Assembly (NCBI GenBank): GCA_963701665.1
Contig: OY969622.1
Span: 160,001 to 224,000, forward strand
DNA: 64,000 nt
Source: Candidatus Babeliales bacterium
GTDB taxonomy: Bacteria > Babelota > Babeliae > Babelales > JANWKD01
Reading direction: 5' to 3'
Part shown: in pieces, positions 6,477 through 57,803 of the stretch
Position numbering within the stretch: position 1 is the first letter of the stretch
How the letters are laid out: every line of letters starts with the position of its first letter
Notes under the pieces: generated by a model
Database searches by the model: none
The model's input: the letters and a program-made list of their open reading frames with translations, nothing else
What the model was told of the DNA's origin: nothing
Program-made: the position numbers and the translations under genes

Positions 6477-6881
6477 TGTCATTGCGAGCCGACATTGTCG
6501 GCGTGGCAACCCAGCTTATAAAATTTTATTTATTTTTCCTTTGAGTTGCTCATATAAATCAAACCAAGAGGGATTTATTGACTCAATAAGTTTTAATTTT
6601 TTTGTTCGTGAACCGGATTTTATTTGTTTTTCTCGAGCAATTGCTTTTAACATGTCATCGTAAAGTTCATAGTATACAAGTAAATTACAACCATGTTGCT
6701 TTGTAAATCCTTCGATCATATTATTTTTGTGTTGATACATTCTTTGCGCCAAATTAGAAGTTACCCCTGTATAAAGGGTTCCATTTCTTTTGTTAGTTAC
6801 GATGTATACTGCGGGTTGTTTCATAAGGATCTCATAATAGAATTTTATAAGCTGGGTTGCCACGCTACGCTCGCAATGACA
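6477..6881. mobile_element. REP-like inverted-repeat unit enclosing a GIY-YIG nuclease gene
   Basis: 6477-6525 and 6841-6881 are inverted copies of TGTCATTGCGAGC-loop-GCGTGGCAACCCAGCTTATAAAATT, differing only in the loop. Confidence 0.75.
6516..6824 (-). CDS. small stand-alone GIY-YIG nuclease family protein
   Basis: AVYIVTN..NGTLYTGVTSNL..R..QHK, GFT, LVYYE, AIAREKQIK, NPSW.DLY; probable start MKQPAV at 6824 because the longer track start lies inside the repeat. Confidence 0.92.
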   Translation of the reverse strand: MKQPAVYIVTNKRNGTLYTGVTSNLAQRMYQHKNNMIEGFTKQHGCNLLVYYELYDDMLKAIAREKQIKSGSRTKKLKLIESINPSWFDLYEQLKGKINKIL

Positions 6882-38154: not shown

Positions 38155-38316
38155 ACGTTTCTCACCTTGTTAGAGTTGTTTAGATTAATGTACTAAAAAA
38201 GAATGGTTTTTTTAAGAGCTTATTTGAAAATTACAACAATATTAACTTGTAAAATTAACATTTTAAACAGAGGTGTCATCCTGAGTGATTGTGTTAAAAG
38301 TCAAATATTTTTATAG

Positions 38317-39258
38317 TCAAGCTCTACATAACTCGCCCCTTTTTAATAGAGCATTGGCAATTATAATGAGCTTATGCATAATAGCAACGATAGCTACTTT
38401 AAAAGGTTTTTTAGCATCCATTAATCGCTGGTAAAATTCCCTTAAAGGAAGATGGTGCTTTACCGTGGTCAATGCACACATATAAAGTGCTTTACGAGGA
38501 ATATGCCTGCCATGCTTAATAAATTTTTTGCCTTTGTAATTGCCGCTTTCATTGTCATAAGGACAGACACCAATTAGAGCGGATATTTTTTTGTCGCTTA
38601 ACTGCCCAAGCTCAGGGACAAAAGAAAGTAATGTTGCAGCTGTAGCTTTACCGATTCCTGGGATTGATTCCAAAATGTTTGATTTTGTATGTAACTCTTC
38701 ATCATCTTTGACTAAATCCTGTATTCGAGACTCAATTGATTTAATTTCACTTTCTAAGAGTGCAATAAATCTTTTTATATCAGGAACATATAATACGTGA
38801 GAAGGATGTTTAAGTCGTGTTTTCTCAGCAGCTAAAAATTTTACTAAATCATTTTTACGGTTAACTAGAGCTTGTAGTTTATGCTGATTCTCACTTTTGT
38901 TAACAATCTCGTAACTAGGAGAATTTTTAGAAGCGAATTCAGCAATTTTTTTAGCATCAATTTTATCGGTTTTACTTTTACAGCCAGTAGCTATAATAAA
39001 AGCTTTTATCCTTCGTGGATCAACGATCCAAAGTGAATATCGGTTCTTTTTGAGTAATTGGGCAAGTAATTGTTCATAGCCACCTGTTGCTTCACAGGCA
39101 ATTTGTGTAACTTGATAGTGAGCTAATTCCTTGATTATGTTCTGTATGCCAACTTCTGAGTTAGCTACTTTAAAGAATTTTCCTATAGGATACACATAAA
39201 TATCGAGATTATTTTTTGAAATATCGACACCTACATATACTTCTGCTATGTTTTTCAT
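38317..39258 (-). CDS. IS110-family DEDD recombinase/transposase
   Basis: GVDISK, CEATG, KTDKIDA, SIPGIG, NESG (candidate catalytic Ser), AIMHKL. Confidence 0.96.
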   Translation of the reverse strand: MKNIAEVYVGVDISKNNLDIYVYPIGKFFKVANSEVGIQNIIKELAHYQVTQIACEATGGYEQLLAQLLKKNRYSLWIVDPRRIKAFIIATGCKSKTDKIDAKKIAEFASKNSPSYEIVNKSENQHKLQALVNRKNDLVKFLAAEKTRLKHPSHVLYVPDIKRFIALLESEIKSIESRIQDLVKDDEELHTKSNILESIPGIGKATAATLLSFVPELGQLSDKKISALIGVCPYDNESGNYKGKKFIKHGRHIPRKALYMCALTTVKHHLPLREFYQRLMDAKKPFKVAIVAIMHKLIIIANALLKRGELCRA

Positions 39259-39261
39259 AAA

Positions 39262-39470
39262 TACCTCAGCCTTGTAAACATACGAGATCGTATACCTAAT
39301 ACGTCTCTAGTGATTGTTCGAGGTAATTTTGTGTAAGCTGATAGTCTCAAACTCAGGAACGGTTCTTCTAAACCAGGAGCGTGACGAGATCTATCAGCTT
39401 TTCTCAAACAACCGATATTAAACAATATTTCATTCTTAAATTATCACAATTTACTCTTAAATGCTTTTTG
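39262..39470 (-). ncRNA. bridge RNA (target-binding and donor-binding loops)
   Basis: Guides CACGCTCCT/TCCTGAG match the target and ACAATCACT/TACAAG match the donor; each pair lies within a closing stem; 5' end approximate. Confidence 0.87.
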
Positions 39471-39642
39471 TTTTAACATACAAGGAGCATAGCGACGTAG
39501 GGATCCAGTCTTTAAAATGAAAAACCTTATCAGACTGGATTCCTACGACAACTTCGTTGTCTCAGAATGACGTCTTTTCTCTAGGCATATTTTTCTCGTG
39601 TGTTGAATGTTTATTGAATTTTAGGAATAGATCTAAGCAAAA

Positions 39643-40188
39643 TTAAGAGTTTCTTTGCAAGAAAAAATGAACGCATACTTGACCAGATGCCATGGTAACT
39701 GGATGCATGCTCGTAAGATGCAAAGAAGCAGTCGATGTATGTTTTTGTAGCTCTTGTAAAAAATGTGTTAAGGAAGAAAATGATAATGCTTGTCCATGAA
39801 GTTCGCCTATCGTTTCATGGGCGTATTCAAAATTAGTTATGCAGATGTCCGCTGGCAACGTTCGTATAAGCTTATCAAAATCTGTTAAGAAAACTGCTTT
39901 TTTAGCAGTGAGCGCCGTAAGGTCATGTATTTTATGTTCAAGTTCAGCGCATCTTTTTTCATGTTCAATGAGTGTATGATCATCGATCATCGTGCACACA
40001 GGATGTAAGACGATATACTGATTTTTGAGCAAGCTCATCTGCCAATACCAATATGCGGTATAAGCTCCTAACGCAGTTATGAGACAACCAGTAAGTATTA
40101 AAGAATAGGTATACCATCTCATGCACGCGTTAAATTCATGTGGCTGCATTGGATTAATGAGGGTGGCTGCGTTACTGCGAATTTTCAT
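39643..40188 (-). CDS. PilN-like protein
   Basis: One TM helix, coiled coil, LPADI.IT.F, L.GQA.S...L..F...L. Confidence 0.6.
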   Translation of the reverse strand: MKIRSNAATLINPMQPHEFNACMRWYTYSLILTGCLITALGAYTAYWYWQMSLLKNQYIVLHPVCTMIDDHTLIEHEKRCAELEHKIHDLTALTAKKAVFLTDFDKLIRTLPADICITNFEYAHETIGELHGQALSFSSLTHFLQELQKHTSTASLHLTSMHPVTMASGQVCVHFFLQRNS

Positions 40189-40849
40189 AACTATGTTTTC
40201 CTAGTAAAAAAAGACCGACATGTCCTGCATTTATTTCTTTTTTCTCATGATTCAAAAGATGTATGCCCGATTGATGGGTTAGATACTGTTCAAGCGCGTG
40301 ACTTCGATAGGTGTTTAATGAAGATAACGCCGTTGGCCATTCTTGTGTAGCACTATTGAGTGCGGTGATGGCACCATTGATTGAACTTACCAAACAACAG
40401 GAAAATGATGTTTGCAGGGCGAGTAATTGATACTGCATCAAATGCTCTCGTCTCATGCCAAAAAGATACACGTGCGCGTGCTCATGCGCGTGTGTTGGCA
40501 TAACGATCGCGTTCCATACCAATGATGATGGTAAATACTGTGCACCATCAAAAGAAGCGAGTGCATCGCGCCCAATAGGAACTATACGTTCGTGCACAGC
40601 TGCGCCCTCAATGCCGATTGCAACATAGCATGAGCCTGCTGCGTGGTGGGTTAAAAATGATGCAATATATTTTTTTAGTGCAGAACTATTAAAAATAATT
40701 CCTTGGTGAAACTCGGAACGTGCGAGTACTACGGTTTTACATACTTTTTGATAGGCTGATACGCCAAATTCAAACATGCTCATGCTGAGTATTGTATCGC
40801 TGAGCAGAAGCGTGATTAATTTTTTAGGTTTTGAAAACAGATGCCACAC
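40172..40849 (-). CDS. divergent PilM-like protein
   Basis: GIIFN, VAI.I.G..V.ER.V pattern; upstream of and overlapping the PilN-like gene. Confidence 0.45.
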   Translation of the reverse strand: MWHLFSKPKKLITLLLSDTILSMSMFEFGVSAYQKVCKTVVLARSEFHQGIIFNSSALKKYIASFLTHHAAGSCYVAIGIEGAAVHERIVPIGRDALASFDGAQYLPSSLVWNAIVMPTHAHEHAHVYLFGMRREHLMQYQLLALQTSFSCCLVSSINGAITALNSATQEWPTALSSLNTYRSHALEQYLTHQSGIHLLNHEKKEINAGHVGLFLLGKHSYENSQ

Positions 40850-43825: not shown

Positions 43826-43931
43826 TGTCATTGCGAGCGAATGCGTGGCAATCCAGATAATAAAATTAATTCCTTAAAGGAATCTATTAAAGTTCTGGAT
43901 CTCCCACGGCGCTCTGCGCCTCGGGATGACA
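43826..43931. repeat. REP-like doublet
   Basis: TGTCATTGCGAGC..CGTGGCAATCCAG-spacer-CTGGATCTCCCACGG..CCTCGGGATGACA. Confidence 0.88.
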
Positions 43932-55185: not shown

Positions 55186-56013
55186 ATGCCAGAAATCCCA
55201 GAACTTGAAGCATTCAAATATGTTGTCAAAACACATTGCTTACATAAAAAAATTAAGAATGTTGAATCTTCAAATAAAAAATTAATAAAAATCTCTTTCC
55301 CGAAATTTAAAAAAGAACTTGTTGGCCACCCTTTTGATGCTACTGAAAGAAAAGGGAAATATCTTCTCATATACACATCCGATAGAATTCTTGTTATGCA
55401 TTTTGCGCTGACGGGGTTTCTTGTGTATGCCAAAAATCCCGACGAAAAAGTTAGGTTTACGAGTGTTAAGTTTATCTTTAGCGATGATTCTGTTCTTCAT
55501 TGGATAAGCATCAGACAATTTGAAAAAATATGGTTGGTAAAAAATATAGATGAAATCAAAGGGCTGAGCACATTAGGCGTTGATGCATTAAAAATTTCAA
55601 AAAAAGAATTTCTAGAGCTCGCGCAAAAGTACTCAACAAAAAATGTCAAAGCGTTCTTGATGGATCAAACAATTTTAGCTGGCATTGGTAATGAATATTC
55701 TGATGAGATTTTATTCCAATCAAGTATTGATCCACATCATAAAATTAAAGATCTTTCAAAAAGCGCGTGCGCAAAAATGTATACGCAGATGAAAAAAATA
55801 TTGAAGTATGCGATAACATTGCGCATTAAAGATATAAAAAAAATGCCAGAACAAAACTTTCTTTCAAATAAAGATCGAGAGACATTTAAATCCTCCTATT
55901 TGCAAGCCCACAGGCATACCGATATGATGTGTCCCAAAAATAAAAATCATAGATTAAAAAAGGTCACTATTGCTGGCAGATCTACCTATTATTGTCCAAT
56001 AGATCAAAAGTAA
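55186..56013 (+). CDS. Fpg/Nei-family DNA glycosylase
   Basis: N-terminal M-PEIPE, RKGKYL, MHF.LTG, LMDQ..LAGIGNEYSDEIL, GRSTYYCP..Q. Confidence 0.93.
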   Translation: MPEIPELEAFKYVVKTHCLHKKIKNVESSNKKLIKISFPKFKKELVGHPFDATERKGKYLLIYTSDRILVMHFALTGFLVYAKNPDEKVRFTSVKFIFSDDSVLHWISIRQFEKIWLVKNIDEIKGLSTLGVDALKISKKEFLELAQKYSTKNVKAFLMDQTILAGIGNEYSDEILFQSSIDPHHKIKDLSKSACAKMYTQMKKILKYAITLRIKDIKKMPEQNFLSNKDRETFKSSYLQAHRHTDMMCPKNKNHRLKKVTIAGRSTYYCPIDQK

Positions 56014-56029
56014 TACCTGGTTTATTTCC

Positions 56030-56592
56030 ATGACAGAAAACCCCAGGGTTTTAAACCTGGGGATGAATGTCATCAAATGCGCGAGTAAAGCAAAAATGTA
56101 AATTTTTGCGAAGCGAGGTTCGTTTTGTCATACTAATGGTATGGCAAAGAAATATTGGCACGGAGCGCATACAACACATAGGCACATGTATCATATAGTT
56201 TGGTTACCGAAATATAGAAAAAAAGTATTAGAAGGAAACGTTAAGAGTAGGTTAGGAGAACTCTTGCGAGAATGTGCAGAAATTAATGCATGGGAAATTC
56301 AGGAATTAAATATTCAGATAGACCATGTACATCTTGTAATACAGTTACCACCAAGTATAAGTGTGAGCAAGGCCGTTCAACTACTCAAAGGCATTTCAAG
56401 TAAAATGCTTAGAACTGAATTGCCTGAAATAAAGAAATTTTTGTGGGGTAATGATTTTTGGGCGGATGGATATTTCTCCGAAACATTTGGACATTGTTCG
56501 GAAGAGACAATTCTCAATTATGTTAGAAATCAATAAAAAGCTTTCATCTCGTGCTTCTAAATCCACGGCTTTTAAGCCGTGTGTTGTTTAAT
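56030..56592 (+). mobile_element. IS200/IS605-family element carrying tnpA only
   Basis: Subterminal hairpins CCCCAGG..CCTGGGG (56041-56062) and CACGGCTT..AAGCCGTG (56564-56581); exact ends uncertain. Confidence 0.8.
56141..56536 (+). CDS. tnpA: IS200/IS605 Y1 HUH transposase
   Basis: HIVWLPKYRK, DHVHL, LW...FW..GYF, YVRNQ. Confidence 0.95.
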   Translation: MAKKYWHGAHTTHRHMYHIVWLPKYRKKVLEGNVKSRLGELLRECAEINAWEIQELNIQIDHVHLVIQLPPSISVSKAVQLLKGISSKMLRTELPEIKKFLWGNDFWADGYFSETFGHCSEETILNYVRNQ

Positions 56593-56711: not shown

Positions 56712-56815
56712 TGTCATTGCGAGCGAAGCGTGGCAACCCAGCTTATAAAATTAGCTCCTTTTAAGGAATTATTAAAGTTCTGGGTCACCACGTTACTACG
56801 TTCCTCGTGATGACA
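56712..56815. repeat. REP-like doublet
   Basis: Left arm nearly identical to the GIY-YIG-flanking repeats; spacer similar to the 43826 copy. Confidence 0.88.
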
Positions 56816-57646: not shown

Positions 57647-57704
57647 GGTTATTTACCTCTAAAATAAACATTCAACTTAAGTGAAAATATGCCTAGAGAA
57701 ATGA

Positions 57705-57803
57705 TGTCATTCTGAGGCGCCTTGGTGCCGTAGGAATCCAATCTGATAAGGATTTTCATTTTAAAGACTGGATCACTACGTCGCTTTGCTCCTCATGATG
57801 ACA
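57705..57803. repeat. REP-like doublet, intact homolog of the IS110 target
   Basis: TGTCATTCTGAGG..CCGTAGGAATCCA-spacer-CTGGATCACTACGTCGCTTTGCTCCTCATGATGACA. Confidence 0.88.

Follow-up and report, generated by a model that had tools for sequence, protein, structure and literature searches.

The IS110-family element at 38284–39484 (minus strand) of the window, the 64,000-nt stretch of Babeliales DNA analyzed here, is IS621-like and very probably reaches a CT dinucleotide within a hairpin repeat of its host by RNA-guided recombination, employing a bridge RNA that is predicted in its left end. The element spans 1201 bp, counting both AG/CT cores, and has three genomic copies that are identical over 1201 of 1201 bases in the 1.34 Mb, single-contig genome that was searched. 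Guided targeting is rated as highly likely on the basis of three lines of evidence, namely, the anatomy of the element, the placement of all three copies, and the covariation of guides with targets among relatives. IS110 bridge recombinases, their targeting of REP sequences, and guide–target covariation across orthologues have already been published. What is new is a co-resident sister IS110 that has the same donor and another target loop, and that resides in a second repeat family.

The element encodes a 313-aa recombinase (38317–39258, minus strand) harboring the PF01548 (DEDD, E 8.9e-22) and PF02371 (E 1.1e-17) domains, and it scores 202 bits against NF033542, for which the cut-off is 140. 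In the PDB, its sequence matches only the IS621 and ISCro4 transposases (phmmer E values of 1.5e-35 and 3.3e-37, respectively). Residues D12, E56, D98, D101, and S238 align with the catalytic D11, E60, D102, D105, and S241 of IS621, and at the level of the alignment the catalytic motifs are intact. A fifth, weak tblastn match of the transposase (genome 77918–78136, E 0.003) was rejected as an IS110; judged by eye, it looks like a helix-hairpin-helix glycosylase.

The coding region is bordered by two ends of very different length. The right end (38284–38316, minus strand) has only 33 bp and contains the left-donor half and a CT core (38284–38285), while the left end (39259–39484, minus strand) extends over 226 bp, carrying its CT core at 39483–39484 as well as the predicted bridge RNA. 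A CT at both ends, read in the transposase sense, is found in 3/3 copies and represents a short core, the removal of the element leaving a scarless empty site. The right end harbors a predicted −35 hexamer, TTGACT (38299–38304, minus strand), and the left end a predicted −10 hexamer, TATGTT (39475–39480, minus strand). These hexamers, which are consensus matches only, stand 17 nt apart solely across the circle junction, and they do so in both this element and its sister. A linear promoter scan, which is blind to a junction promoter, returned 6 promoters versus 5.4 expected, i.e., chance level. Rfam at gathering thresholds gave 0 matches within the window.

The two domains, the DEDD and serine residues, the short cores, and the long left end with a predicted bridge RNA place the element in the IS110 (IS621-like) group. 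The long right end with a guide RNA that is characteristic of the IS1111 group is absent, the right end being short and the RNA being predicted in the left end. However, the 8-bp subterminal inverted repeat of the element (38292–38299 in the right end and 39471–39478 in the left end, both on the minus strand and read from the sequence) exceeds the 2–3 bp reported for the IS110 group and falls inside the 7–17 bp range given for IS1111 (PMC11208160, in the sections drawn on here). This repeat flanks the donor, and in the relative L004 it has changed on both sides with its pairing kept, as seen by eye.

All three identical copies lie at one CT of a repeat arm, in the context GCTC-CT-CRGGATGAC, and no identical copy lies elsewhere. 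An earlier, sequence-only reading of the window had proposed a precise IS110 insertion in a REP-like palindrome and had asked whether every insertion falls at GCTC-CT-CRG; both proposals hold for 3/3 copies. The placement is not attributable to chance, since all three share the same site and 53 arms of the family occur in the genome versus none in a reversed-genome control. In the window, the first 10 bases of the split arm (38274–38283, plus strand) provide the TGTC tag and the start of the stem. The remainder of the arm, a spacer, the inverted second arm (ending at 39572), and a shared outer flank follow on the far side of the element (39485–39594, plus strand). When the element is removed together with one core, the repeat is restored in precisely the form given by the sequence-only reading. 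The rejoined site matches the reverse complement of 57684–57802 in 105 of 122 columns, with no gap at the junction and with the outer TTTCTCTAGGCATA flank included, and the two flanks are halves of one repeat.

The copy at 57.7 kb (57684–57803, minus strand, the tag starting at 57803) had been regarded as an empty-site homolog in the same window. It is indeed an intact repeat dimer, but it is a paralog and not the empty allele of the IS locus, and it is also a poor predicted target, with 4 of the 14 target positions differing from the guide (1, 2, 3, and 12). Similarly, the match between the outer flanks is real, but the insertion point that it was thought to fix is instead set by the arm alignment and by the positions of the two remaining IS copies. 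A loose sequence end at 39483 (run X1) was rejected as an empty site, as it matches another arm variant and not the empty site of the IS locus. No sequencing run contained half of the sequence words looked for, and the contigs of 4 of the 12 listed runs yielded short pieces only, with no joints.

The target repeat is multicopy and intergenic, as had been supposed. Run on the genome with the IS copies removed, an iterated profile search yields 53 arms versus 0 in the reversed control, and the midpoints of 48 of these fall outside ORFs of at least 120 aa, although such ORFs cover 86% of the genome. The arms carry a TGTC or CGTC tag (53/53), a CCA tail (51/53), and a stem starting with AT (40/53) or TT (13), and an inverted partner tag is found within 200 nt of 45/53 arms versus a background of 16%. 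Two further intact dimers were located in the window by the profile search, at 43826–43931 and 56712–56815. On the basis of its tag, tail, stem start, inverted dimers, and intergenic location, the repeat belongs to the CGTC-tagged REP superfamily, with which it shares the TGTC/CGTC tag, the CCA tail, and the inverted dimers described in the cited parts of Di Nocera 2013 (PMC3733652). In contrast to families 1–4 of that superfamily, as these are described there, the arms do not form an 8–9 bp stem with a 4–5 nt loop; their stem is longer and interrupted. An isolated arm folds weakly with standard DNA parameters (−1.0 and −0.7 kcal/mol). We infer that a "safe harbour" offered by such repeats may be the selective reason for targeting them.

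A Y1 transposase was considered as the mobilizer of the repeat; it is not proposed as such because the three copies inspected are not flanked by arms, except incidentally downstream. This IS200-type transposase lies at about 55974–56590 (plus strand) of the window, as well as at genome positions 79824 and 1253004–1254495. It has five identical, equal-scoring copies and one broken copy, three of them in tandem with a spacing of 566 bp.

Arms of a related type also accompany small nuclease genes. A single-domain GIY-YIG gene of 102 aa (6516–6824) lies between two inverted TGTCAT-tagged arms (6477–6881, minus strand), and its product matches PF01541 only, apart from a weak structure match to UPF0213. 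Of the eight short GIY-YIG genes in the genome, four are flanked on either side by TGTCAT-tagged arms (6477–6881 of the window and genome positions 955314, 974643, and 261534); the arms flanking the gene at 955314 are of the IS target type. Other hairpin-like repeats are found near the four further genes (350419, 499341, 645313, and 224071), suggesting that at least two nuclease–repeat pairs may be present in the genome. By analogy, the arrangement resembles that of the SsnA nucleases and the Ssn-related motifs (SRMs), in which, according to the sections of PMC11893778 cited here, the repeats likewise flank small single-domain GIY-YIG genes. The resemblance does not extend to the published degenerate SRM pattern, which fits 0/53 arms and has one match in the whole genome versus four in the reversed control, and the repeat was accordingly rejected as an SRM as defined in that source. 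A gene with a PilN domain is located upstream of the split repeat (39643–40849, minus strand). Its neighbor may, we presume, be PilM-like. Because SsnA is linked to transformation, type IV pilus or competence genes at this position would deserve attention.

The 226-bp left end folds with a z-score of −3.39, with 2 of 200 shuffles being equally good. From its sequence, a two-loop bridge RNA is predicted whose target guides fit the occupied sites. The predicted target-binding loop (39337–39398, minus strand), delineated by the fold, the guide match, and the alignment of relatives, would present a left target guide, CACGCTCCT (39375–39383, minus strand), and a right target guide, TCCTGAG (39352–39358, minus strand). 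The predicted donor-binding loop (39261–39327, minus strand), delineated by the fold and the guide match, would present a left donor guide, ACAATCACT (39309–39317, minus strand), which agrees with the donor at 9/9 positions, and a right donor guide predicted at 39271–39279 (minus strand).

The target guides match the three occupied sites at 12, 12, and 11 (plus one U:G wobble) of 14 positions. The sequence-only reading had asked whether the guide best matches the genome-wide repeat consensus. It matches the consensus of the 53 arms at 11/14 positions plus one U:G wobble, but position 1 is a C where 53/53 arms have a T, and no site in the genome is a perfect match; positions 2 and 3 vary among arms. 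Fourteen genomic sites lie within two mismatches of the guide, 10 of them being repeat arms. Three arms with a single mismatch, including the one at position 1317699 of the IS-free genome, are empty, while the occupied arms have two non-wobble mismatches each. All three occupied arms belong to the 20/53 with at most two non-wobble mismatches, a weak association (about 0.05 by hand count). The low mismatch tolerance seen in IS621 screens (PMC11208160, in the portion cited) counts against a guided reading of these sites.

By analogy with IS621, excision of the element would yield a circle whose junction joins the −35 and −10 hexamers at the 17-nt spacing and drives transcription of the RNA. The donor loop would then pair with the circle junction, while the target loop would pair with the repeat arm, with its bottom strand to the left of the core and with its top strand to the right. 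Strand exchange by the recombinase would take place at the CT. In this scheme, guide positions 4–14, which match well, would read that section of the arm which is more conserved, the U at position 11 being able to read either A or G, and the mismatched positions 1–3 would lie over the arm's small loop of three bases.

The sister IS110 (L114, genome 534756–535939) shares 69% protein identity with the window element and has intact motifs. The two elements have the same 14-nt donor and the same left donor guide; the target loop of the sister differs, and its inner hairpin is weakened. The guide of the sister matches its own site at 13/14 positions, which makes this site the best one in the genome for that guide. 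The site lies in a second palindromic repeat family with nine loci. A description of that family as GTAG-tagged was discarded, GTAG occurring at the relevant place in only 5/9 loci. No cross-placed copies between the two sisters were seen among the four insertions (0/4).

A survey of the phylum identified a transposase match at E 1e-40 or better in 19/261 genomes. One relative of the transposase, L031 in genome G218, is labelled Candidatus Babeliales, so that the host probably belongs to this order. Thirty-five loci were parsed, of which L017 is without a target loop and the other 34 yield 20 guide groups; four of these groups (L003, L011, L012, and L019) were dropped for want of a flank or guide, as was L022, the site of which is cut at a contig end. 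For 16 distinct guide pairs and 29 sites, cognate combinations agree on average at 8.73/12 non-core positions versus 3.52 for non-cognate combinations, with register errors of the alignment-anchored parsing at L033 and L113 lowering the cognate score. Permutation of guides and sites equaled this result in 0/100000 trials, a figure that overstates the significance because the elements are kin. The cognate guide is the best one for 14/16, and the scores of four guides on their own sites reach only 7/12. Metagenome loci were kept outside this statistic, and 7/80 of them were inspected by eye.

Among relatives with 59–76% protein identity, guides and sites change together while the scaffold and the donor loop are kept, and the ten closest relatives have nearly the same donor. 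The same-genus genome G110 has nine arms of the repeat type found in the window, versus 0 in four other genomes tried. Its element keeps the donor and the donor loop, yet 4/5 of its copies lie in another repeat and 1/5 (L027) lies outside. That other target motif is multicopy in 5/5 genomes tried, and 3/5 (G173, G252, and G134) have multiple copies of a third motif, which is related to the sites occupied in these three genomes. A quick protein tree recovers a 10-element clade that includes both elements of this genome (SH-aLRT 100), within which the order of retargeting is not resolved. The lineage has likely been re-aimed several times among host repeat families through changes of the target loop alone. 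The retargeted guide postulated by the sequence-only reading is directly supported in that both the same-genome sister and the same-genus element combine a retained donor and donor loop with other target guides and other repeats.

Three further explanations for the choice of site were weighed. The first adds to guided targeting and does not replace it: both the guide and the hairpin structure of the repeat would be needed (a "dual-match" logic, as reported for ISPpu10), with the protein reading the folded arm, so that the guide could tolerate mismatches over the small loop. The mismatches at occupied sites are at positions 1–3, over the three-base loop, and of the 32 sites that match guide positions 4–14, the six located outside arms are all unoccupied. 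A target stem-loop has moreover been described as a specificity determinant for ISPpu10 (bioRxiv 10.64898/2026.03.19.712850, in the part cited). However, the remaining 26 of the 32 sites are arms, such that 3/3 insertions in arms are expected without any role for structure. Over the clade in its entirety, too, no position matches less well than position 1 (0.36 Watson–Crick), and the weak folding of an isolated arm speaks against its recognition as a hairpin. Taken together, this additional requirement is plausible but falls short of an even chance.

Alternatively, the IS may have landed once, the IS and its repeat then being copied together by repeat mobilization or gene conversion. Such a history would suit copies A and B, which share a repeat subfamily and a target 14-mer and whose flanks are nearly identical. 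Nevertheless, A and B show 0/1201 differences in the IS but 9/110 in the repeat flank next to it. Joint copying is largely refuted by copy C, whose repeat belongs to another subfamily and whose target 14-mer and second arm are different; separate insertions into already diverged repeats fit these observations best. Copying would also leave the guide–target covariation across relatives unexplained, and it is considered very unlikely. Even less credible is recognition of the repeat by the protein alone, with an incidental match between RNA and target. The imperfect guide would be in keeping with it, and older work credited the transposases with the choice of REP (PMC1525189, in the sections cited), but the joint switching of guides and sites at 59–76% identity, on a constant scaffold and donor loop, argues against it. 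RNA-guided targeting remains the preferred reading.

A broader reading that joins these observations is offered tentatively and is rather less likely than not to be right as a whole. The Babeliales IS110 lineage would keep one donor and hop among host hairpin families by rewriting its target loop only. The two sisters, with one donor and two guides between them, would then form a natural system in which each RNA could direct the insertion of either element and both repeat families would be open to both. The main target would be the hairpin that serves an Ssn-type single-strand nuclease element for recognition, and the IS would be a guided parasite that splits one hairpin per insertion.

The IS110 gene of Nf1 is probably the integrase acting at dRS3 in Neisseria. 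The Nf1/MDA prophage carries an IS110 transposase and integrates at a CT motif in dRS3 (PMC7058167, in the part cited, where transposase and integrase are named separately), which is the Neisseria CGTC-1 repeat (PMC3733652, likewise). The target is of the same kind as the one described here, a CT motif in a CGTC-tagged repeat; Nf1/MDA differs in being a phage and not a simple IS, and dRS3 has a shorter, perfect stem.

The closest known systems are IS621, for which the cited sections describe the RNA-guided (bridge) mechanism, the junction promoter layout, and insertion into REP sequences (Durrant 2024, PMC11208160; Hiraizumi 2024, PMC11208158), and ISCro4. The window element shares with them the DEDD and serine recombinase, the CT core, a long left end in which target and donor loops are predicted, and a REP-type target, and its two hexamers would give a similar promoter layout at the junction. 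It is distinguished by its Babeliales-like host, a TGTC/CGTC-tagged repeat in place of the E. coli REP, a 7-nt right target guide match, and two non-wobble mismatches at every occupied site. ISPa11, ISPpu9, ISPpu10, and ISRm19 have all of their copies at one REP position, termed "type 1 association" in the cited part of Tobes and Pareja 2006 (PMC1525189), and every copy of the present element likewise occupies one position of a broken REP. As in P. putida, two REP-targeting IS110s reside in one genome; for the pair described here, the two share a 14-nt donor and aim at two repeat families. In a literature search, no pairing of IS110 with Dependentiae, Babeliales, TM6, or Babela was found among the matches listed.

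The elements add a natural series of about sixteen related guides on one scaffold, with two sisters in one small genome. Such a series can be used to test distal mismatch tolerance, the role of the target hairpin, and the cross-mobilization of co-resident elements. Compact recombinases of 313 aa from a phylum that has been little studied are a further gain, and an IS110 target is tied to GIY-YIG-associated hairpins.

Several individual loci of the survey have features of their own. The G110 copy outside the repeat (L027, contig C6, near 254–255 kb) occupies a site with a poor match to the left guide; this site apparently lies in an integrase-core-like reading frame. In L003 (G064:C9), the left end begins with a tandem duplication of its initial 18 bases. 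The right flank of L009 (G029:C1) disagrees with the right target guide and duplicates a stretch present upstream of the element, suggesting a rearrangement after insertion. The three copies in G241 (L006, L023, and L028) have a target that lies beside hairpin repeats and not in an arm, with the guide matching at 11–12 of 12 positions.
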